From NCBI GenBank assembly GCA_034926635.1, contig JAYFQX010000005.1:70220-134219 (forward strand): a stretch of 64,000 nt of DNA, in the 5' to 3' direction. The stretch is from Christensenella sp. (GTDB lineage Bacteria > Bacillota > Clostridia > Christensenellales > Christensenellaceae). Within the stretch, counting starts at the first letter, position 1. Each line of letters begins with the position of its first letter. This document shows positions 2,966 through 13,090 of this stretch, piece after piece. Under the pieces are notes generated by a model. The model did no database searches and was not told the DNA's origin. It saw only the letters and a program-made list of their open reading frames with translations. Made by a program: the position numbers and the translations under genes.

Positions 2966-4030
2966 ATGCCTTTAGTAAAGACACTGGATCTATTAAGAGA
3001 TTGCGAAGATATGAAATATGCGGTAGGGGCGTTTAACATTAACGGTCTTGACCAGCCGCAGGCGTTGATCAAGCGTGCGCAGCAGCTCCGCTCCCCGATT
3101 TTGATGGTGGAGCCGGGGGTCATTGAAAAATATGTAAGTTTTGAAGATTTTGCGGATGTAACAGCGCGTGCAGCACGCGATGCGGACATTCCTGTGGGAA
3201 TCCATTTAAGCCATGGGCTGGATTTAGAACAGTTTGAACGCGCTTGCAAGGCGGGATTTACATCTGTTATGTATGACGGCTCCAAATTTTCTTATGAAGA
3301 AAACGTTGCCAATACAAGAATCGCGGTAGAAATCGGTCGTAAATACGGTTGTGCGGTGGAAGGCGAATTGGGAGCGCTCGGCAGCTCGTTTGCAAATGTA
3401 TCGGAGTCCATGACTGACCCGGCAATGGCGCGGGACTTTGTTGAGAAAACTGGCGTTGATATTCTTGCAGTTTCTATTGGCAATGCGCATGGATTTTATA
3501 AAGGAACACCGAGCCTTGATTTTAAACGGCTGGAAGAAATCCGCTATGCACTGATGGCTAAGGATTGCTTCTTGACGCTGCATGGCGGCACGGGAATTCC
3601 CGAAGACCATATCCGCCGCAGTATTGAGATGGGTATCGTAAAAATTTGTATCTACACGGAAATGTGCCATGTTGGAAAGGCTAACGCCATTAAGTATATT
3701 GAAGAACATCCGGAATATACGGGAAATTATGACGTGTGTGATTTGATCGCCTCAATTGATAATGGTTTTGCTGATGCGATGGAAGAATCCATGCGGATGT
3801 TTATGAGTATCGGCAAAGTGGGGCGTGGACAGGGAAACTTTCAGTCCATGGAACATCCTATGAGGGATATGAGTACGCAGGCAATGCCGGCGGGCGTAAA
3901 AGCAACGCAGGCTTCGGCGGCCCCCGCAGCAGTGGATACGGAAGTTCGCGATCCGGGTCCGGCATATCCGTCGCTTCCCGCGCAGAACCCGAATTACAGA
4001 CCTGCGGGCTTCTGGAATAAAAACGTTTGA
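2966..4030 (+). CDS. Class II fructose/tagatose-bisphosphate aldolase family protein, atypical (HLSH motif, 69-aa C-terminal tail)
   Basis: AVGAFNI, VEGELG, SIGNAHG, LHGGTG motifs; canonical HLDH reads HLSH. Confidence 0.85.
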   Translation: MPLVKTLDLLRDCEDMKYAVGAFNINGLDQPQALIKRAQQLRSPILMVEPGVIEKYVSFEDFADVTARAARDADIPVGIHLSHGLDLEQFERACKAGFTSVMYDGSKFSYEENVANTRIAVEIGRKYGCAVEGELGALGSSFANVSESMTDPAMARDFVEKTGVDILAVSIGNAHGFYKGTPSLDFKRLEEIRYALMAKDCFLTLHGGTGIPEDHIRRSIEMGIVKICIYTEMCHVGKANAIKYIEEHPEYTGNYDVCDLIASIDNGFADAMEESMRMFMSIGKVGRGQGNFQSMEHPMRDMSTQAMPAGVKATQASAAPAAVDTEVRDPGPAYPSLPAQNPNYRPAGFWNKNV

Positions 4031-4090: not shown

Positions 4091-5590
4091 ATGTTGTTGA
4101 TGGGCGTGGATATGGGAACTTCGGGCTGCAAAGCTGTGGTTTTCGACGAGCAATGGAAGATAGCAGCAAGCGCATACCGTGAATACGGGTTTACGCTTCC
4201 GGGTCAGGGGCTTTTAGAGCTGGATGCGGAAGCGGTATGGCAAGGAATTTGTGAAGTAATTGCGGAAGCCGGAAAAAAAGTCGATGGAAAAATAACGGCA
4301 CTTGCGGTTTCGGCCATCGGCGATGTCATTATACCGCTGGGAAGCGATGGGAAACAAACTCGATATTCGATCGTGGATTTTGACCCGCGCGGCAAGGCGG
4401 AGCTGGACAGGCAAATACAGGCATTTGGAAAAAAAAAGTTTTTCCAAATTACAGGGATGCCGCCGCTTTATCTCGGAAGCCTTGCCAAGATTTTATGGAT
4501 CAGGGAGCATGAGCCGCAGGCATTTGCCAAAACAACGCGCTATGCTACCTATGAGGATTTCATCGTAGAGCGGTTGGGAATCAAGCCTGCCGTCAGTTAC
4601 AGCGAAGCGGCGCGTACTATGTTATTTGATATTCGCAAAAAAGATTGGTCAGATGAGGTGCTTGCCATAGCGGGACTGAAACGGGAGATGCTGGCAACGC
4701 CGGTGGAATCGGGTATTAAGCTTGGGGTGATACCGGATAAAATATGCGGCGCTCTGGGACTGGAAAATGGCGTTTGCGTTGTAAGCGGCGGACATGATAT
4801 GGTGTGCGCGGCAGTGGGCGCAGGACTTAATGAAGACAAGCCGGAAACGGCGGTCGATATTGCGGGAACGATTGAAGGAATCGTAGCGACCATGAAAGAG
4901 CCGAATACTTCGGCTGAGATGCTGGAAAATAATTTTCCGTGCTATCCGTGTCATAAAGGATATGTAACCTTCAGCGTGAACGTGACGGCGGGCTGTATTG
5001 TCCGCTGGTACAGGAATTTTATCGCAAAAGATGAATATGAATCCTGTGAAGAAAAAAATATTAATTTTTATGAGTATATGCAGCGCGGAGTAAAAACAGA
5101 GGAGCCCGGGGAATTGATACTTCTGCCCCATTTTTCCGGGAGCGGCAATCCTTATTTTGATCCGTATGCAAAAGGAGCGCTTTACGGTATGACGCTGGAC
5201 ACCACGCGTGAGGATATCGCACGCGCGATGATCGAAGGGCTCTGTTATGAATTAAAATTTCATGCGCAGGCGTTTCAAAACGCAGGCATGGATATCCACA
5301 CAATCCGCGCGGTGGGCGGCGGCGCGATAATTGATAAACAACTGCAGTTAAAAGCGAATATCACGGGGCTTACTGTGATTAAAGGGGCGGTAAGCGAATC
5401 TTCCGCGATGGGCGCAGCGGCATATGCTGCGGTTGGTGTCAACCTGATTGAAAATCCGGCGCAGGCTTTTTCGGCTGTGCGGGAGCAGGAACGCGTGTTC
5501 CAGCCGGATACAACCATCTCAAATCGATTCTGTAATGCTTATGAAGAGTATCGGAAACTTTCAAAATTGATCCATGATTTTGAGCAATGA
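4091..5590 (+). CDS. FGGY family carbohydrate kinase (xylulokinase-like)
   Basis: GVDMGTSGCK, GGHD, LPHFSG, GGGA motifs. Confidence 0.92.
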   Translation: MLLMGVDMGTSGCKAVVFDEQWKIAASAYREYGFTLPGQGLLELDAEAVWQGICEVIAEAGKKVDGKITALAVSAIGDVIIPLGSDGKQTRYSIVDFDPRGKAELDRQIQAFGKKKFFQITGMPPLYLGSLAKILWIREHEPQAFAKTTRYATYEDFIVERLGIKPAVSYSEAARTMLFDIRKKDWSDEVLAIAGLKREMLATPVESGIKLGVIPDKICGALGLENGVCVVSGGHDMVCAAVGAGLNEDKPETAVDIAGTIEGIVATMKEPNTSAEMLENNFPCYPCHKGYVTFSVNVTAGCIVRWYRNFIAKDEYESCEEKNINFYEYMQRGVKTEEPGELILLPHFSGSGNPYFDPYAKGALYGMTLDTTREDIARAMIEGLCYELKFHAQAFQNAGMDIHTIRAVGGGAIIDKQLQLKANITGLTVIKGAVSESSAMGAAAYAAVGVNLIENPAQAFSAVREQERVFQPDTTISNRFCNAYEEYRKLSKLIHDFEQ

Positions 5591-5822
5591 AAAATAGGAA
5601 ACACAAGTAATTCAATGCTTTCCCTGGAAATCAAAGGGTTTCTGACAAGAGGGAAATGAACCTTCAATAACAGATAAAAAATAATGGTATTCATGTATGG
5701 AGAAACAAGAAAAATTCTCCTGAGGTTTTGTGTTCGCAAAATAGATATTTATGTATCAAAAAGCGATTTGTTTTATGATATTTCGAAGTTTGATGAATAA
5801 AAAATTCAAAGGAGGATCGGTC

Positions 5823-6317
5823 ATGAAAGAAATAACAATTGGTCAGGCTGCAAAGCTGACCTCACCGCATCTGTTTGCGGCAATCGTTACAAAAAACAGT
5901 GATGGAAAAGTGAATATTATGGGGGCGTCATGGCTCTCATTTGTATCCTTCCGTAATCAAAAAATGCTGTTTTGTACTTCCGCTTCCGGATATACGGGGG
6001 GCATTGTGAAAGAGACCGGAAAGGCAAGCTTGTGCTTTATTACGCAGGCCGCGGCAGAGCAGGTTTTTAAGTGCTGCAAGGTTAGCGGGCACAATACGGA
6101 TAAGATCAAGGAATTTGGGATCTCGTTGGTGCAACCCGAAGGGTTTGACGTGCCGGTACCCGAAGGATCCGGGGTTGCTTTCTCGTTGGAGTTAGACCAG
6201 GCGGTTTTGAGCGGCGACCATAACATTTATATCTGTTCGATCAAAAAAGTGGTTCAACTCAGTGATGAACCGATCTTAATGGCATTTGACGGCTATAGCC
6301 GTATTGGGACAATTTAA
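5823..6317 (+). CDS. Flavin reductase-like FMN-binding split-barrel protein
   Basis: VNIMGASW, CCKVSG..DK, GDH motifs; start re-called behind GGAGG at 5811. Confidence 0.85.
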   Translation: MKEITIGQAAKLTSPHLFAAIVTKNSDGKVNIMGASWLSFVSFRNQKMLFCTSASGYTGGIVKETGKASLCFITQAAAEQVFKCCKVSGHNTDKIKEFGISLVQPEGFDVPVPEGSGVAFSLELDQAVLSGDHNIYICSIKKVVQLSDEPILMAFDGYSRIGTI

Positions 6318-6349: not shown

Positions 6350-7846
6350 TTGGAAGAATATGTGCTTGAAATGAGCGATGTCGGCAAAACGTTTGCAGGC
6401 GTAAATGTATTGCGTGACATTAACCTAAAGCTGAAAAAAGGCGAAGTACATGTACTGCTTGGAGAAAACGGCGCGGGAAAATCAACGCTCATCAAGATTA
6501 TTTCCGGCTATCATAAGCAGGACAAAGGCGGAACGATCAAGGTAAACAGTAAAGAAGTGGATTTCAAACGCCCGAAAGACGCGATTGATGCCTCGATCCA
6601 TACGATTTATCAGGAATTAAGCTTATGTCCGTATATGACGGTTGCGGAAAACATCGTGATCGACAAACAGGATAGGTTTAACGGCGGAACATTGAAAAAT
6701 GCGGAATTTCGTAAAATTGCGGTAGACGCTCTGAAAAAATTGGGTCAAGACGAAATTAATCCTGATATGCTGGTACGTGATTTATCCATTGCCCAGCAGC
6801 AGGTAGTTGAAATTGCAAAAGCGATTTCTGCAAATGCACAGATCGTATTAATGGATGAACCGACGTCTTCTATTTCACAGAAAGATGCGGATAAACTGCT
6901 GCAAATCGTACGGAATCTGAGGGATAACGGCGTAACGGTGATCTATATTTCCCATAGGTTGCAGGAAATCGGACAGATCGCCGACAGGATCACTATCCTG
7001 CGCGATGGGAATCTTGTAAAGACCGTAGAGCAAAAAGACGTTACGGATAAAGATCTGATCAGTATGATGGTCGGCAGAGATATCACCAATACCTATCCAA
7101 AACGAGATGTAAAACTCGGAGATGTGGTGCTAAAGCTCGATAAGATTAAATGTGAAGGCGTTTTCGAAGAAGTTTCTTTAGAAGTCCGCAGCGGAGAGAT
7201 TTTTGGTATTGGCGGCATTGTTGGTGCGAAACGTACAGAAATTTTAGAAGCGATTTTCGGGCTACGCAAAATTACAAGTGGCAAGATGTATTTAAATGGG
7301 AAAGAATTCAATCCCAGAGGACCGCGTGATGCAATCAAAGATAAGATTGCGTTCGTAACAGAAGACAGAAAAAAATCCGGGTTGGTATTATGCCTCCCAA
7401 CCATGGAAAACATCAATATGGTCAATGCACAGCGAAAATCAAAATTTGGGTACATTGACTGGAAAGCCATGACAAAAGAAGCGTTAAAACAAAAAGAATT
7501 ACTGAACATCAAACTCAATAATATTAACCAGAAGGTATCTACGCTTTCCGGCGGCAATCAGCAAAAAGTTGTACTTGCAAAGTGGATGGATTTCGAACCG
7601 GCGGTGGTGCTCTTTGATGAGCCGACACGAGGTGTTGATATCGGTGCTAAAACTGAAATTTACAATATTATGGGGGATCTTGCAGAAAAAGGCGTAGCGA
7701 TTATTATGGTTTCTTCTGAATTGCCGGAATTGATTAGCGTAACGGACAAAATTATGGTTATGCGCGAAGGTGTCATGAAAGGCGTGATCGACAGGGACGA
7801 AGCGACGCAGGAACTGGTTATGGCCCTTGCAACGATGGAATCATAA
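6350..7846 (+). CDS. Sugar ABC transporter ATP-binding protein (RbsA/MglA type)
   Basis: GENGAGKS, MDEPT, LSGGNQQK, FDEPTRGVDIGAK; twin NBDs. Confidence 0.95.
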   Translation: MEEYVLEMSDVGKTFAGVNVLRDINLKLKKGEVHVLLGENGAGKSTLIKIISGYHKQDKGGTIKVNSKEVDFKRPKDAIDASIHTIYQELSLCPYMTVAENIVIDKQDRFNGGTLKNAEFRKIAVDALKKLGQDEINPDMLVRDLSIAQQQVVEIAKAISANAQIVLMDEPTSSISQKDADKLLQIVRNLRDNGVTVIYISHRLQEIGQIADRITILRDGNLVKTVEQKDVTDKDLISMMVGRDITNTYPKRDVKLGDVVLKLDKIKCEGVFEEVSLEVRSGEIFGIGGIVGAKRTEILEAIFGLRKITSGKMYLNGKEFNPRGPRDAIKDKIAFVTEDRKKSGLVLCLPTMENINMVNAQRKSKFGYIDWKAMTKEALKQKELLNIKLNNINQKVSTLSGGNQQKVVLAKWMDFEPAVVLFDEPTRGVDIGAKTEIYNIMGDLAEKGVAIIMVSSELPELISVTDKIMVMREGVMKGVIDRDEATQELVMALATMES

Positions 7847-7865
7847 AGATACAGGAGGAGACACA

Positions 7866-8879
7866 ATGGAAACATTAGAAAAAAATAGAAGCTTTAAAGG
7901 ATTTTTGATCAAGTATAAAACAGTCTTGATTTTAATCGCGATTATCGTAATTTTTACGATTATCAAACCGATCTTTGTTGCGCCGGTCAATCTCATGAAC
8001 ATGCTAAAACGCATGAGTTATGTTGCGCTGACAGGCTTCGGGATGACGTTCATCATTACGCTGGCAGGTCTTGATCTTTCGGTTGGATCGATTTGTGCGA
8101 TCGTTGGCGTAACGCTGGGCATGATGCTTGGAGCTGGCGTACCGCTGGTGCTGGCGATCATTATTACACTGGGCATTTCGCTGGGACTCGGCTTTATCAA
8201 TGGTTTTGTTTCTGTAAAAGGAAAAATTGAGCCATTCCTCGTAACGCTGGCAACTATGAATATTTATCGCGGTATTGCGCTTATCCTATCGGAAGGAAAG
8301 CCAATCCCGATTACGGCGGAGGGATTTGCTGATTTTTTCGGAAATGGGCTGGTTGCAGACTTTATTCCTACTCCGGTTATTATCATCGTCATTTTCTTTG
8401 TACTGACCTTATTCCTTTATAAACATACAAAATTTGGTTTTTATGTACGCGCAATCGGCGGAAATCCGGAAGCGGCACGTGTCGCTGGTATCAACGTAGG
8501 CGGGATTAAAATGATCGCTTATACGCTCAATGGTATCTATGCATGGATGTCGGGACTGATTTTGGCGGCGCTGATGAATTCAGGTTTACCGAATATCGGT
8601 ACTGATCTTGCGCTTGATGCAATCGCGGCTGTTGTTTTGGGAGGCACGATTATCGCCGGTGGTTATGGAACGGTCTGGGGGACCCTCGGCGGCGTATTGA
8701 TCATGGGTGCGCTCAACAGCGGCATGAGCCTTTTGGGTGCGCAAACGCCGGTAATCATCCTGGTAAAAGGTCTTGTAATCATTCTTGCCGTATTAATGCA
8801 GAATGTATTAAGCCCGGATTCTTTGAAGGCGAAGGCAGCTAAGAAAAAAGGTGGATCGCTAAAAACGGCTAAAGAGTGA
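7866..8879 (+). CDS. Sugar ABC transporter permease (RbsC type)
   Basis: GLDLSVGS, AIGGNPEAARVAG, AAVVLGGT motifs; multiple hydrophobic segments. Confidence 0.93.
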   Translation: METLEKNRSFKGFLIKYKTVLILIAIIVIFTIIKPIFVAPVNLMNMLKRMSYVALTGFGMTFIITLAGLDLSVGSICAIVGVTLGMMLGAGVPLVLAIIITLGISLGLGFINGFVSVKGKIEPFLVTLATMNIYRGIALILSEGKPIPITAEGFADFFGNGLVADFIPTPVIIIVIFFVLTLFLYKHTKFGFYVRAIGGNPEAARVAGINVGGIKMIAYTLNGIYAWMSGLILAALMNSGLPNIGTDLALDAIAAVVLGGTIIAGGYGTVWGTLGGVLIMGALNSGMSLLGAQTPVIILVKGLVIILAVLMQNVLSPDSLKAKAAKKKGGSLKTAKE

Positions 8880-8920
8880 CAGATTTTATGAACTGAAAAT
8901 AATAAAAGGAGTAACAAAGA

Positions 8921-10147
8921 ATGAAAAAAATGAAAAGAATGTCTCTGGTTGCGGTACTTTTGGTCATTTTGATATTAGTAACGGCATGCACTGGGACAAG
9001 CTCTACGGGGACAGATGCGGCGGCTTCAGAAGATACTGCGGAAGCTGCAGCATCTCAGGAAATAGGCACCACAGCTACTAAAGAGAATACTGAAGTTGCG
9101 TCATTTGAATACGTGAACCCCGCGGGAACAAAATCCGACATTAACAAGTATTACAATGACCTTGGGATTGACTGCAACGTAGATATCCGCTGTACGGGCG
9201 GTGATGTCAAAATCAAGGATGGCGCGATTGAAAAAATTCCAACGCCTAGCAAACAATATACCATCGGATTTTCGGATTACTATACGGTAGACGAGGTTGG
9301 GTCTATGTACCTGCAGTCTATGAAAGAAGCTGCTGAAGAAGTGGGAATCGAGCTTTTGATCAATGATGCAAACTACGACCAAAGCAAACAAGACCAGGCA
9401 ATCGAGCAGTGGATCCAGCAAGGCGTAGACGGCGTTATATTAACACCGTGCGACTTTACCGGCGTAAAAGCATCATTAGATGCCCTGGAAGCAGCCGGAA
9501 TTCCGGTGATCTCTTTGGATGCGCCCCCACAGGCAGGGAATGTAGATGCGATCGTTACTTACGATTGTATCGAGCAAGGTGAAATGGCAGGCGGTCTGCT
9601 GGAACAGGCACTGCTGGACAGCGGATCGGATATGAAAGGTAAAGTAGTCTATAACACGCTGCCGTTTGTACATCCCAATGCGGTAACACGTACCATTGGA
9701 TTTGAAAATGTATTTGATCAGTATCCTGATATCGAGCTGGTAGAGCTGACAGGCAATGCACCGGAAGATCATTACACCGCGTTTGAAGGTGCGATTCAGG
9801 CAAATCCGGATATGCTTGGCGCATGGGGGCTTTACAGCTCGGCGACCATTGGCATGATGAATGCAAAAATGGCTGCAAAACGTGATGACATCCTGCTGAC
9901 CTCTGTTGATAACGACAGACCGATCCTTGCGGGCATCGCCAATGGTGAAATTCTAGGGAGCGCATGCTATAGCGCAGTAGACGGTTCGAGGATCGCACTG
10001 AGCCAGATGATCAATCTTTTAGATGGCGCTGAAATTCCGGGAATCATCTATCAGGAAAACATTCTGGTTACAAAAGACAATGTTGAAGAAATGTTCCCGC
10101 ACTATTATCCGGGAAATACACTGGAAGGGTATTTAAGCGCACAATAA
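8921..10147 (+). CDS. Sugar ABC transporter substrate-binding lipoprotein, paralog 1
   Basis: Signal peptide with lipobox LVTAC, Ala/Ser/Thr tether, RbsB-like domain. Confidence 0.88.
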   Translation: MKKMKRMSLVAVLLVILILVTACTGTSSTGTDAAASEDTAEAAASQEIGTTATKENTEVASFEYVNPAGTKSDINKYYNDLGIDCNVDIRCTGGDVKIKDGAIEKIPTPSKQYTIGFSDYYTVDEVGSMYLQSMKEAAEEVGIELLINDANYDQSKQDQAIEQWIQQGVDGVILTPCDFTGVKASLDALEAAGIPVISLDAPPQAGNVDAIVTYDCIEQGEMAGGLLEQALLDSGSDMKGKVVYNTLPFVHPNAVTRTIGFENVFDQYPDIELVELTGNAPEDHYTAFEGAIQANPDMLGAWGLYSSATIGMMNAKMAAKRDDILLTSVDNDRPILAGIANGEILGSACYSAVDGSRIALSQMINLLDGAEIPGIIYQENILVTKDNVEEMFPHYYPGNTLEGYLSAQ

Positions 10148-10258
10148 AACATAACGACGGGAATCCCTTTGTTTGTGAAAATTCTATAAAAATGATGAAC
10201 ATGAATTTGGTTTGCTTTATGTAAAACCATAAAATAAAAAAATGAATGGAGGAAAAAA

Positions 10259-11515
10259 ATGAAAAAATTATCACTGGTTGCACTGGTACTCGCAGTATTG
10301 ATGCTGTTTGCGGCGTGCGGAACAGGAACGACGACGGAATCGTCTGCACCGGCGGAATCTGCAGCGGCTTCGGAGGAACCGACCAAAACGGAAGCGCCCG
10401 CAGAGTCGTCCGCTGCGGCTTCGGAAGCGACGGGAACATCGGACAACCCGAATGCTGCTGATTTTGAATATGTCACGGCAGATTATGTAAAAGACGGCGT
10501 ATTTGATATCAACACATATTACAATTCTCTTGGGGTAGACTGCAACGTTACCATTAAAGAAGACGGCGGCGTAGTAAAAGTACAAGACGACATGAAGACG
10601 TCTGTGCCTAAGGCAAAAGAAAAGTACACGATCGGTTTCTCGATTTATTACACGGTTGACGAAGTTGGCGCAGTTATTCTGGATACTATGAAAAAAGTAG
10701 CGGAAGAAGCTGGCGTGGAGTTGCTGGTCAATGACGCGAACTATGATCAAAACGCGCAGAACCAGGCTGTTGAGCAGTGGATCACGCAGGGCGTAGACGG
10801 CGTTATCATTGCACCATGCGATTTTACAGCAGTAAAAGGATCGCTGGATGCACTGGAAAAAGCCAATATCCCGGTTGTTTCCATGAACCCGCCGCTTGCA
10901 GGGACGGTTGACACAGTTGTTATGCTCGACTGTGTAGAAGAAGGTCAAATGGCTGGCGAAATGCTGATCGACGCCATCAAAGCAGAAGGCAAAGACGTAA
11001 AAGGACAGATCGTTTATGACACACTGCCTTTCGTTCATCCAAACGCGGCAACCCGTACCAAAGGCTTTAAAGATGCATTTGCTTCTTATCCGGATGTTGA
11101 ATTTGTTGAACTGACAGGGACTTCTCCGGAAGACCATTATACCGCATTTGAAGGTGCGCTGCAGGCGTATCCGGACATGATCGGTGCATGGGGGCTTTAC
11201 AGCTCGGCGACCATTGGTATGGTAAATGCGAAAAAAGCAGCAAACAGCACTGTTCCGATCTCCTCGGTTGATAACGATAAAGTTATTCTCGCGGATATCG
11301 CAGACGGATCTGTTGTTGGATCAGCGTGCTATTCCGGCGCGGCTTCCGCAACGTGGTGCATGTCTGATATCGTCAATATTTTGAATGGCGTACAGGATAT
11401 CCCTGCTGCAATTTTCTATCAGAACCAAAAAGTTACAAAAGATAACGTTGCGGAAATGTTTGCGCATTATTATCCGGGAACGACGTTAGAAGAGTACCAG
11501 AATGGGCAAGGCTAA
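10259..11515 (+). CDS. Sugar ABC transporter substrate-binding lipoprotein, paralog 2
   Basis: Lipobox LFAAC, ESSAPAESAAASE tether; extensive identity with 8921-10147 (LPFVHPNA, PEDHYTAFEGA, AWGLYSSATIGM). Confidence 0.88.
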   Translation: MKKLSLVALVLAVLMLFAACGTGTTTESSAPAESAAASEEPTKTEAPAESSAAASEATGTSDNPNAADFEYVTADYVKDGVFDINTYYNSLGVDCNVTIKEDGGVVKVQDDMKTSVPKAKEKYTIGFSIYYTVDEVGAVILDTMKKVAEEAGVELLVNDANYDQNAQNQAVEQWITQGVDGVIIAPCDFTAVKGSLDALEKANIPVVSMNPPLAGTVDTVVMLDCVEEGQMAGEMLIDAIKAEGKDVKGQIVYDTLPFVHPNAATRTKGFKDAFASYPDVEFVELTGTSPEDHYTAFEGALQAYPDMIGAWGLYSSATIGMVNAKKAANSTVPISSVDNDKVILADIADGSVVGSACYSGAASATWCMSDIVNILNGVQDIPAAIFYQNQKVTKDNVAEMFAHYYPGTTLEEYQNGQG

Positions 11516-11559: not shown

Positions 11560-12234
11560 ATGAGTAATGTAGCGCCTGAGTTGATCGTTATGCTGACACA
11601 CCATGACAAAACAGTGGAAAATGCGATCGAAGTATTCGAAGGGGCAAAAGATGCACCCGCCAAATATTGGGGTTTTAAAGAAGTTGGGCTTCCTATTCCC
11701 GATATGAAAATATTGGTGAAAAAGATGAAAGACGCAGGAAAAAAGACATGCTTGGAGATCGTGGATTACACGGAAGAAGGCTGTCTTGCCGGAGCAAAGA
11801 TCGGTGTGGAATGCGGATTCGACATCGTGATGGGGACGTTGTATTTCGACTCTGTGAGAGACCTGCTTATAGAGAACAACGTGGAATACATGCCTTTTGT
11901 TGGGAAGCTTTCCGGTCGCCCGAGCGTTCTTGATGGCACGATCGAAGAGATCATTGCCGAAGCGCAGTATTTGGTGAAGGAGAAAGGCATCAAGGGCTTC
12001 GACCTTCTTGGATACCGCTACGTGGGAGATGCTGTAAAGCTCAATAACGAGTTTGTGAAGAATGCCGGCGTGCCGGTATGCCTCGCGGGCAGTGTACAGA
12101 GTTATCAGCGCCTTGACGAAGTAAAAGCAACAGGCGCATGGGCATTTACCATTGGCGGAGCGTTCTTTGAGAATAAATTCGACGGAACGTTTGCAGAACA
12201 GATCACAAAAGTTGTAGAGTATATGAAACGCTAA
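11560..12234 (+). CDS. Uncharacterised protein, probable ribulose-phosphate-binding TIM barrel
   Basis: Alternating beta/alpha pattern, GFKEVG, and a C-terminal LAGSV...TIGGAF phosphate-binding-like segment; function not recognised. Confidence 0.6.
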   Translation: MSNVAPELIVMLTHHDKTVENAIEVFEGAKDAPAKYWGFKEVGLPIPDMKILVKKMKDAGKKTCLEIVDYTEEGCLAGAKIGVECGFDIVMGTLYFDSVRDLLIENNVEYMPFVGKLSGRPSVLDGTIEEIIAEAQYLVKEKGIKGFDLLGYRYVGDAVKLNNEFVKNAGVPVCLAGSVQSYQRLDEVKATGAWAFTIGGAFFENKFDGTFAEQITKVVEYMKR

Positions 12235-12250
12235 CCACATTGTGTCGGTT

Positions 12251-12282
12251 GGGGAGGCAGCCGGAGAATGCCGGACCTCCCC
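12251..12282. other. GC-rich stem-loop without U-tract
   Basis: GGGGAGG-CAGCCGG..CCGG-A-CCTCCCC downstream of 11560-12234. Confidence 0.55.
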
Positions 12283-12367
12283 TTCATGGCATTTATCAAA
12301 AAAGAAAAAAACGCCCGCAGAGGCGCGGCATATAGTTTTATTTAAAATTGGAAAGGAAGTAAATGTG

Positions 12368-13090
12368 ATGAGAGTATTGGCTTTTGGGGCGCACCCGGAC
12401 GATATTGAGTTCCGTTGCGCAGGGACGCTGGCAAAGATGGCTGAACGCGGCGATGAAATTTATATGTGTATCGCGACCAATGGGAACATCGGTTCTTTTA
12501 AAATGGGGAAAGATGAGATTAAGGCGGTACGCAGGGCTGAAGCGGAAAAAGCCTGCGAGGTGATCGGTGCGCACTTGATTTATCTGGATGAACCGGATGA
12601 GTTTTTGTTTGACACGGAAGCAACTCGCATGAAGTTTATCGAGGCGTACCGTATAGCGCGCCCGGACGTGGTATTCGCGCCGCCGTCTTTTGCGGATTAT
12701 AACCAGGATCACGATATGACGGGGTATCTTGCGTTTGTAGCGCGCGTGCTTGCTACAATTAAGCTGATCGAAACGGAGCATGAACCAACCGCGTTTGTAC
12801 CGCCGCTTTTTTATACGCAGCCGCATGGAATCCACCCGGATTTTCAACCGGAGTATTTTGTGGATATTACGCAGACGGCAGGAATTAAAGACGAAATGTG
12901 TAATTGCCATGCTTCTCAGATGGGCGATTGGTGTAAAGACGCCTTTGGAGTAAATTATCTGGAAGGCAAAGAACGTACGGATAAGTACTGGGCAAATGCG
13001 TGTGCGACACCCGGCGTAGAGTATGTAGAAGTGTTCTCGCTGTGTAAAACGTGGCCGATTCGTGCAGGCGCCCATAAACTTTTACCATAA
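12368..13090 (+). CDS. PIG-L/LmbE family deacetylase
   Basis: GAHPDDIE and DH(D) metal-binding motifs; start re-called behind AAGGAAG. Confidence 0.9.
   Translation: MRVLAFGAHPDDIEFRCAGTLAKMAERGDEIYMCIATNGNIGSFKMGKDEIKAVRRAEAEKACEVIGAHLIYLDEPDEFLFDTEATRMKFIEAYRIARPDVVFAPPSFADYNQDHDMTGYLAFVARVLATIKLIETEHEPTAFVPPLFYTQPHGIHPDFQPEYFVDITQTAGIKDEMCNCHASQMGDWCKDAFGVNYLEGKERTDKYWANACATPGVEYVEVFSLCKTWPIRAGAHKLLP

Follow-up and report, generated by a model that had tools for sequence, protein, structure and literature searches.

Paired replacement of the catalytic Asp and a substrate-binding Asn in a microcompartment-associated clade of class II aldolase-family proteins

A 64,000-nucleotide stretch of a Christensenella sp. 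genome (assembly GCA_034926635.1, contig JAYFQX010000005.1, positions 70,220 to 134,219 of the forward strand; hereafter the window) encodes a class II aldolase-family protein in which the catalytic Asp and a substrate-binding Asn of canonical enzymes are replaced by Ser and Cys, respectively. We refer to it as the HLSH protein, after the motif that stands in place of the canonical HLDH. Both replacements are fixed throughout a clade that extends from Bacillota to Actinomycetota, many members of which are encoded beside bacterial microcompartment (BMC) genes, and we conclude that the HLSH protein represents a genuine, conserved variant, not described so far, of a well-known type of enzyme, and that its organelle context is clear. 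The class II aldolases of the PF01116 fold are textbook enzymes and drug targets, and, as far as we know, no natural branch without the catalytic Asp has been described. A first-pass annotation of the window had called attention to the HLSH motif and proposed an altered chemistry; the microcompartment context, a C-terminal targeting-type extension, and the invariants P50, E54, Y56, T204, C234, and the Y251/G253 insertion are observations that go beyond it. As for the reaction, we favor enediolate chemistry without the canonical aldol step, a reading suggested by the residues kept and lost, to which we assign a probability of roughly 0.4.

Fold and active site of the HLSH protein

The HLSH gene occupies positions 2966 to 4030 of the window on the forward strand, stop codon included, and encodes a protein of 354 aa (P0001). 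Its open reading frame (ORF) is intact, running from an ATG at 2966 to a stop codon at 4028-4030; it begins 5 bases past the stop codon of the upstream dehydrogenase gene and is preceded by a GAAGG ribosome-binding motif. A Pfam profile search assigned residues 5-284 to PF01116 (E-value 2.5e-73), while none of the 20 NCBIfam aldolase equivalog models that matched gave a score reaching its curated cut-off, the best giving 238 bits versus a cut-off of 406. The AlphaFold2 model of P0001 has a (beta/alpha)8 fold with a mean predicted local distance difference test score (pLDDT) of 90.7, and its best Foldseek matches are class IIb fructose-bisphosphate (FBP), tagatose-bisphosphate (TBP), and sulfofructose-phosphate aldolases, with target TM-scores of 0.90-0.94. 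These results are best explained if the HLSH protein is a working but diverged enzyme of the class II metal-dependent ketose-bisphosphate aldolase fold.

The first-pass annotation had read HLSH from the codons CAT TTA AGC CAT and KICIYTE further downstream, with the metal-binding His residues of HLSH, GNAHG, and LHGG retained. All of this was borne out by the ORF translation and by a HMMER alignment to the tagatose-bisphosphate aldolase AgaY (PDB 1GVF); only the start of the first motif, given as 3202, was one base early, as the codon of H80 begins at 3203. The motif H80-L-S82-H83 spans 3203-3214 on the forward strand and contains the metal ligand H83 together with S82 (AGC, 3209-3211), which falls under the catalytic Asp82 of the AgaY HLDH. 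The second motif, K226-I-C228-I-Y230-T231-E-M-C234, spans 3641-3667 on the same strand (AAA ATT TGT ATC TAC ACG GAA at 3641-3661 encoding its first seven residues), and its C228 falls under Asn230 of the AgaY KVNVATE, the Asn that binds the dihydroxyacetone phosphate (DHAP) moiety. Much of the remaining active site is retained: H83, H175 (GNAHG), and H206 (LHGG) align with the three zinc ligands of AgaY, and both Glu residues of ExELG, D104, and a phosphate site composed of HGG[ST]G and T231 are likewise present. The loop after strand 2, P50-G-V-I-E54-K-Y56 (3113-3133, forward strand), is remodeled and lies at the position of the distal anion site of canonical enzymes.

Published structural and mutational work indicates what these replacements may mean. 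In a crystal complex of the sulfofructose-phosphate aldolase SqiA with its substrate, the C3-hydroxyl is hydrogen-bonded by exactly Asp82 (2.5 Å) and Asn230 (3.0 Å) (PMC10665668). Because Ser and Cys replace both of these residues, the HLSH protein is unlikely to be a standard FBP/TBP aldolase. The backbone amides of the SqiA strand-2 loop bind the distal sulfonate (PMC10665668), and the replacement of this loop argues against a second anionic group on the HLSH substrate. In Escherichia coli FbaA, DHAP is deprotonated by the loop residue Glu182, and as the C-C bond forms the nascent hydroxyl receives its proton from Asp109 (reviewed in PMC11194214). The FbaA D109A mutant does not cleave FBP, but is left with a 4-epimerase activity that proceeds via retro-aldol cleavage with Asp288 or Tyr328 as the base (PMC5434028). 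Since the invariant Tyr230 of the HLSH clade aligns with the Asp288 position of FbaA, an alternative base is conceivable here as well. Thus, the altered chemistry proposed in the first-pass annotation holds to the extent that the paired Asp-to-Ser and Asn-to-Cys changes make a standard aldolase unlikely, an aldolase using another base still being conceivable. Judging from the alignment, the enolization and phosphate half of the active site is conserved and the aldol-specific pair is replaced. The genome also encodes a separate canonical class II FBP aldolase (FBA) with HLDH, KINIDSD, and a GVEDE loop, and glycolysis is therefore independent of the HLSH gene.

The closest characterized relatives are the class IIb aldolases AgaY/KbaY/GatY (1GVF), the Bacillus and Staphylococcus FBA enzymes (3Q94, 4TO8), and SqiA (8Q57-8Q5A), which belong to the same Pfam family, share the TIM barrel, and are 31-35% identical to the HLSH protein. 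The metal triad His83/His180/His208, Glu134, and the P1 phosphate site are common to both, whereas the HLSH protein differs in the Asp82-to-Ser and Asn230-to-Cys replacements, the remodeled strand-2 and mobile loops, the 251-253 insertion, and the 65 aa added at the C terminus. With the class IIa enzyme FbaA it shares the metal-enediolate logic, E147 probably being the equivalent of Glu182, but it has no equivalents of Asp109 and Asn286.

S82 and C228 define a single clade

Among the 120 best database homologues (49-99% identity), 119 have HLSH and one has HMSH, while 118 have KxCIYT[ED]; in a set of 121, the one further sequence gave no hit in the motif search. We aligned 118 HLSH homologues (47-99% identity) jointly with the 143 nearest other family representatives (the outgroup). 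Position 82 is Ser in 100% of the clade versus Asp in 100% of the outgroup, and position 228 is Cys in 100% of the clade versus Asn in 97% of the outgroup; neither Ser nor Cys ever occurs at the respective position in the outgroup. H83, H175, H206, and E134 are invariant or nearly so on both sides. The mobile-loop Glu column, E147 in P0001, holds Glu or Asp in 97% of the clade, with differing loop lengths and a few members, such as P0117, that have no acid there. Further clade-specific features include T204 (Val elsewhere), G124, the inserted Y251/G253, and the invariant residues P50, E54, Y56, C234, and D256. Across 28 members down to 45% identity, ~70 columns are invariant, including all metal ligands and phosphate-site residues, and the ORF is intact in all HLSH homologues. 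This pattern of conservation shows that the HLSH protein has been strongly constrained to remain an enzyme that binds metal and phosphate.

When 1.84 billion representatives clustered at 50% identity were searched exhaustively, the clade showed a sharp boundary, with the score dropping from 384 bits (P0105) to 200 bits on leaving the clade; among the best 150 matches of that search, the motifs occur only in P0105 and two fragments. In a maximum-likelihood tree, all 28 sampled HLSH sequences lie beyond one branch of length 0.6 with SH-aLRT support of 100, and the HLSH branch is, on this tree, monophyletic and set on a long stem. The first-pass annotation had argued that two changes in an otherwise intact ORF were unlikely to reflect a sequencing error and had suggested that homologues be aligned. 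The alignment agrees on both counts, with S82 and C228 invariant in the clade and absent from the outgroup, and HLSH marking a monophyletic clade that is tied to one gene neighborhood and whose close orthologues do not have HLDH. A sequencing error or strain-private mutation is effectively ruled out by the clade-wide HLSH and KxCIYT[ED] motifs and by the copies in three congeneric genomes, which are 80-83% identical.

Clade members were found in Bacillota, including a Lachnospiraceae metagenome-assembled genome (MAG), and in Actinomycetota MAGs. Within the host family the gene is patchy, being present in 4 of 14 genomes of the genus and in 0 of 42 genomes from other genera. A related-locus search over genome contigs returned mostly canonical aldolases, with three Actinomycetota loci of the clade among the matches listed. 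The nearest outgroup sequences (P0123, P0131, and P0132; 339-350 aa) have canonical HLDH and KxNxYTQ motifs, Cys-rich linkers, and C-terminal amphipathic helices. From these features, they are probably microcompartment cargo aldolases with intact catalytic residues.

HLSH genes are found at metabolosome loci

The 8 kb just upstream of the window, which begins at contig position 70220, contain a complete metabolosome operon (locus L006, contig 56000-70400; ORFs at 6433-14248 of L006). It encodes a phosphotransacylase (PTAC), a PduM-like protein, three BMC-P proteins, an acylating aldehyde dehydrogenase (PRK15398 match, 617 bits), a PduS-like flavoprotein, one tandem BMC-T protein, and two BMC-H proteins, together with a divergent DeoC-like aldolase of the deoxyribose-phosphate aldolase (DERA) type. 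The latter matched TIGR00126 with an E-value of 8.8e-18, which is under the cut-off, and matched DERA structures in the PDB with E-values of 1e-14. Typical amphipathic encapsulation helices are found at the N termini of three of these proteins, namely the DERA-like aldolase, the acylating aldehyde dehydrogenase, and the PduM-like protein. Shell genes (PF00936, PF03319) thus lie 3.7 kb upstream in this genome, and the same arrangement of gene cassette and BMC genes recurs in loci L001, L003, L004, and L005 and in the three congeneric genomes. In the Actinomycetota locus L010, a BMC-H gene is located between the dehydrogenase and HLSH genes, and on another contig both a BMC-H gene and an acetate kinase gene are found in this position.

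No RpiB-type ribose-5-phosphate isomerase (RPI) was detected in L001, L003-L005, or L093, for which the called genes were inspected, or among the ORFs scanned in L006. For sugar-phosphate-utilizing (SPU) BMCs, RPI is reported absent from SPU5 and part of SPU4 (PMC11585597), and LerI has been described as a TpiA homologue (PMC10733421). The locus type fits the DERA-based SPU metabolosomes (PMC8217296, PMC11585597). The L093 locus also has a CsoS1D-type shell protein, a feature described for SPU5 (PMC11585597). We had considered the HLSH protein as the sole candidate signature enzyme of L093, but dropped this idea because a truncated DERA-like ORF of 110 aa (L093:16507-16839) follows the aldehyde dehydrogenase gene. 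This ORF retains the KVIIE Schiff-base region with both ends missing, and reflects either gene decay to a pseudogene or a break in the assembly of this MAG.

A C-terminal extension accompanies the shell genes

Typical family members end near residue 285, and P0001 is extended by 65 aa. The extension consists of an Ala/Pro-rich linker (~residues 291-322; 3836-3931, forward strand), which varies in length and sequence among homologues and is modeled at pLDDT 50-78, followed by a conserved tail (~residues 323-354; 3932-4027, forward strand) of the pattern ..V.D.GPAYPSLPAQN......G-FWNKNV. Across the subclade, the tail consensus is approximately [IV]xNxD[IL]GPxYPS[LK]PAxN......Gx[FY]W[DNH]KN[VL]. 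The P0001 tail is Pro/Gly-rich and is not an amphipathic helix of ~18 residues; the model contains only a four-residue helix, and residues 331-340 are predicted with moderate confidence (pLDDT ~81). The deeper branches of the clade (P0110-P0121, L009, and L010) end in a classical amphipathic helix, such as EDIEVITKRVIDILKEK. At loci encoding such helix-tailed HLSH proteins, the adjacent D-2-hydroxyacid dehydrogenase is also extended, to 389-436 aa (L093:8805-9980 and the contigs of P0111 and P0112), and that of L093 ends in an encapsulation-type helix, YDWLVEEITRKVIEQMK. As the dehydrogenase is helix-tailed along with the HLSH protein, the two enzymes appear to be co-packaged.

The presence of an extension is correlated with the presence of shell genes, which were found at 11 of the 12 tail-bearing loci with usable flanks, the contig of the twelfth ending 3.8 kb downstream. 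In contrast, none of the four tail-less loci (L094, L011, L095, and the P0083 contig) has shell genes, while the rest of the cassette is kept. Under a hypergeometric model, the probability of finding the four tail-less loci all among the five that lack shell genes is 5/1820, for loci that are not independent of one another. Tail-less members occur at three or more places in the tree. A region search for the tail motif matched clade members only, with no other family among its matches, and a six-frame regular-expression scan of eight sequences (seven loci and the window) located the motif on the HLSH protein and a single decayed remnant and nowhere else. Since extension and shell genes go together, we read both tail types as BMC-association signals, and the sequence of the P0001 tail makes it a candidate non-helical signal of an undescribed kind.

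The HLSH gene belongs to a conserved carbohydrate cassette

The HLSH gene is the fourth gene of a co-directional cassette, all on the forward strand, which is conserved from Bacillota to Actinomycetota. According to Pfam and NCBIfam matches, it is preceded by genes for a GntR/UTRA regulator (80-790) and a Zn-dependent alcohol/polyol dehydrogenase (Zn-ADH; 797-1858), which are followed by a D-2-hydroxyacid dehydrogenase gene (1902-2960) directly upstream, leaving the 5-nt gap to the HLSH gene. This dehydrogenase adjoins the HLSH gene in nearly all loci. Downstream are genes for an FGGY carbohydrate kinase (4091-5590; XylB-like, under the cut-off), a flavin-reductase-like protein (5751-6317), and an ABC sugar importer comprising an ATPase, a permease, and two binding lipoproteins (6350-11515). 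The two lipoproteins (8921-10147 and 10259-11515) are paralogous, each with a low-complexity Ala/Ser/Glu/Thr-rich linker of ~100 residues after the lipobox, and most related loci have one such protein rather than two. Next is an orphan HisA-like phosphate-binding barrel of 224 aa (11560-12234) with no Pfam match and a weak C-terminal likeness to the phosphate-binding motifs of HisA and NanE. It is present in every cassette, and the automatic name "4-hydroxythreonine-4-phosphate dehydrogenase" that it bears in some sources is probably wrong. The last gene (12242-13090) encodes a PIG-L/LmbE deacetylase that is conserved in the cassette. The conserved set comprises the regulator, the Zn-ADH, the D-2-hydroxyacid dehydrogenase, the HLSH protein, the kinase, the barrel, and this deacetylase. 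As listed, the deacetylase ORF begins at a GTG and encodes 282 aa, ~42 more than its homologues of 239-241 aa, and its real start is probably an ATG near 12368 (MRVLAFGAHPDD). The L003 locus also harbors a decayed second copy of the cassette (L003:19180-19740), flanked by an additional GntR gene and an additional FGGY kinase gene; what remains are pieces of the Zn-ADH and 2-hydroxyacid dehydrogenase genes and of the sequence for the HLSH tail motif (VENWDNGPSTPSEPT).

From this organization, we conclude that the HLSH protein belongs to a six-enzyme pathway for an imported carbohydrate derivative, and that several lineages couple this pathway to an acetaldehyde-type metabolosome. The PIG-L deacetylase and the acidic invariants of the distal pocket are weak hints that the substrate bears an amino or N-acetyl group. 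A literature search returned nothing specific on this cassette or on a PF01116 epimerase or isomerase.

Discussion

We infer the substrate class, the reaction type, and the physical encapsulation of the HLSH protein from the features described above. The neighboring dehydrogenases, deacetylase, and FGGY kinase would generate a mono-phosphorylated modified sugar as its substrate. The kept half-site, composed of the three His residues, the Glu ligand, the P1 phosphate site, and, in 97% of members, a loop acid, would bind this substrate as a phosphorylated alpha-hydroxyketone and stabilize its enediolate. The lost pair, Asp82 and Asn230 in AgaY/SqiA numbering, holds the C3-hydroxyl and classically protonates and deprotonates O4 in the aldol step. 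Without this step, the reaction may be a proton transfer, as in an isomerase or epimerase, or a beta-elimination, as in a dehydratase, with Cys228, Tyr230, or Glu54 as the acid/base. In the BMC-coupled loci, the C-terminal extension would mediate packaging of the protein, in some cases along with the neighboring 2-hydroxyacid dehydrogenase, and the product of the HLSH protein would be passed on to the DERA-like aldolase and the acylating aldehyde dehydrogenase. By analogy, this pairing of HLSH and DERA-like enzymes would resemble the RpiB-DERA pairing of other SPU organelles. We favor this chemistry because the lost residues are aldol-specific, a new invariant Cys is predicted to lie beside C3, the enolization apparatus is kept, and a DERA-like enzyme is available for the aldehyde-forming step. 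There is also a precedent in the PF00596 fold, where enzymes that lost the residues specific to the aldol step include the epimerase AraD, the dehydratase MtnB, and the decarboxylase OtnC.

Several considerations weigh against enediolate chemistry of this kind. C228, Y230, and E54 are positioned in the pocket by alignment only, and Asn230 may, from the 1B57 structure, be coplanar with the enediolate, which would be a poor location for proton transfer to carbon. BMC packaging is typical of aldehyde-forming signature enzymes, all characterized PF01116 enzymes are to our knowledge lyases, and the tail-less cassettes contain no other recognizable C-C lyase. These last three points speak for a protein that is still a retro-aldol lyase, and possibly a BMC signature enzyme, an alternative that we regard as the strongest rival, only slightly less probable than the favored reading. 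Such an enzyme would split an unusual mono-phosphorylated sugar into a triose-phosphate-type enediolate and a non-phosphorylated, perhaps amino- or acid-bearing, aldehyde, using as a base Tyr230, Glu54/Tyr56, or a metal-released His in place of Asp82, while Ser and Cys, being smaller, would leave space at C3 for a substituent other than hydroxyl. The remodeled distal pocket with its invariant Glu54 is in keeping with this proposal, as are the nearest outgroup aldolases, which keep HLDH along with C-terminal encapsulation-type helices. In other BMCs, PF00596-fold class II aldolases bearing encapsulation peptides at the C terminus also serve as signature enzymes, one of them paired with a hydroxyacid dehydrogenase (PMC8217296). 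The FbaA D109A mutant bears on both sides of the question: its residual retro-aldol-based 4-epimerization requires Asp288 or Tyr328, the former position being occupied by the invariant Y230 in the clade, but the same mutation abolishes FBP cleavage (PMC5434028), and the D83A enzyme of Giardia was, as stated in the title of PDB 3GB6, crystallized with intact FBP. A lyase is further disfavored by the loss, in 100% of members, of both the residues that hold O3 and act on O4, and by the DERA-like aldolase, which already supplies an aldehyde-forming step in the BMC loci; even L093 has a remnant of it.

The near-universal, tight adjacency of the D-2-hydroxyacid dehydrogenase gene could instead point to a beta-keto-acid decarboxylase, in which a 3-oxo-acid phosphate made with the help of this dehydrogenase would lose CO2 to yield a metal-bound enediolate. 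No base would then be needed at O4, and the loss of negative charge at position 82 would avoid repelling the carboxylate; OtnC offers a precedent, again in the PF00596 fold. Nonetheless, we consider this improbable, as D-2-hydroxyacid dehydrogenases yield 2-oxo rather than 3-oxo acids, the pocket has gained the acidic invariants E54 and D256, and the need for a BMC with an aldehyde dehydrogenase would be left unexplained. It is more improbable still that the protein has no catalytic role and acts as a subunit or scaffold, or that it is a paralogue in decay. The loss of two catalytic residues and a tail that could serve assembly only would be compatible with such a role, but ~70 columns are invariant, the replacement residues are themselves invariant, and the ORF is intact in all homologues.

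Returning to enediolate chemistry without the aldol step, its most far-reaching form would make the clade the first non-aldolase chemistry in the PF01116 fold: an isomerase, epimerase, or dehydratase, assisted by Cys/Glu or Tyr, that converts an intermediate resembling a ketose-1-phosphate within a BMC, taking the place of RpiB before a DERA-like signature enzyme and recruited by a new non-helical C-terminal signal (GPxYPSLPAxN...G[FY]W[DN]KN[VL]). We view this complete scenario as doubtful.

Among known systems, the one most similar in context is the SPU5 sugar-phosphate BMC, for which the published account describes a "class II aldolase" with a C-terminal encapsulation peptide and proposes that it synthesizes FBP from glyceraldehyde-3-phosphate (GAP) and DHAP (Dwyer, Sutter and Kerfeld 2024, PMC11585597). 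The likeness, an aldolase-family cargo protein with a C-terminal targeting extension in DERA-type loci without RpiB, is one of description only. In the passages of that account that we consulted, we found no remark on a missing Asp or Asn or on a non-helical tail (PMC11585597). The PF00596 enzymes, including FucA/RhaD in the PVM, GRM5, and ACI BMCs as well as AraD, MtnB, and OtnC, have an unrelated fold and are comparable by analogy only, being metal-enediolate enzymes of which some are BMC cargo with C-terminal peptides. From our literature search, we know of no comparable functional offshoot described for PF01116. The ydj operon of E. coli likewise places a class II aldolase-family gene, ydjI (PDB 6OFU; E-value 4.6e-40), among Zn-dehydrogenase and kinase genes and that of a sugar transporter. 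YdjI, which we take to be a proven aldolase with canonical catalytic residues, is unlike the HLSH protein in having no BMC link and no tail.

A branch that has swapped both of the residues holding the C3-hydroxyl would constitute a natural experiment on the indispensable parts of a mechanism. The correlation of the tails with shell genes points to a single enzyme family with two natural signals for targeting, one of a new type, with a possible use in BMC engineering. SPU BMCs are widespread and poorly understood, and the HLSH clade provides a handle on a sugar-derivative pathway coupled to organelles of this type in gut, rumen, and environmental Clostridia and Actinomycetota. For this clade, the published model in which the "class II aldolase" of these organelles synthesizes FBP would need revision.

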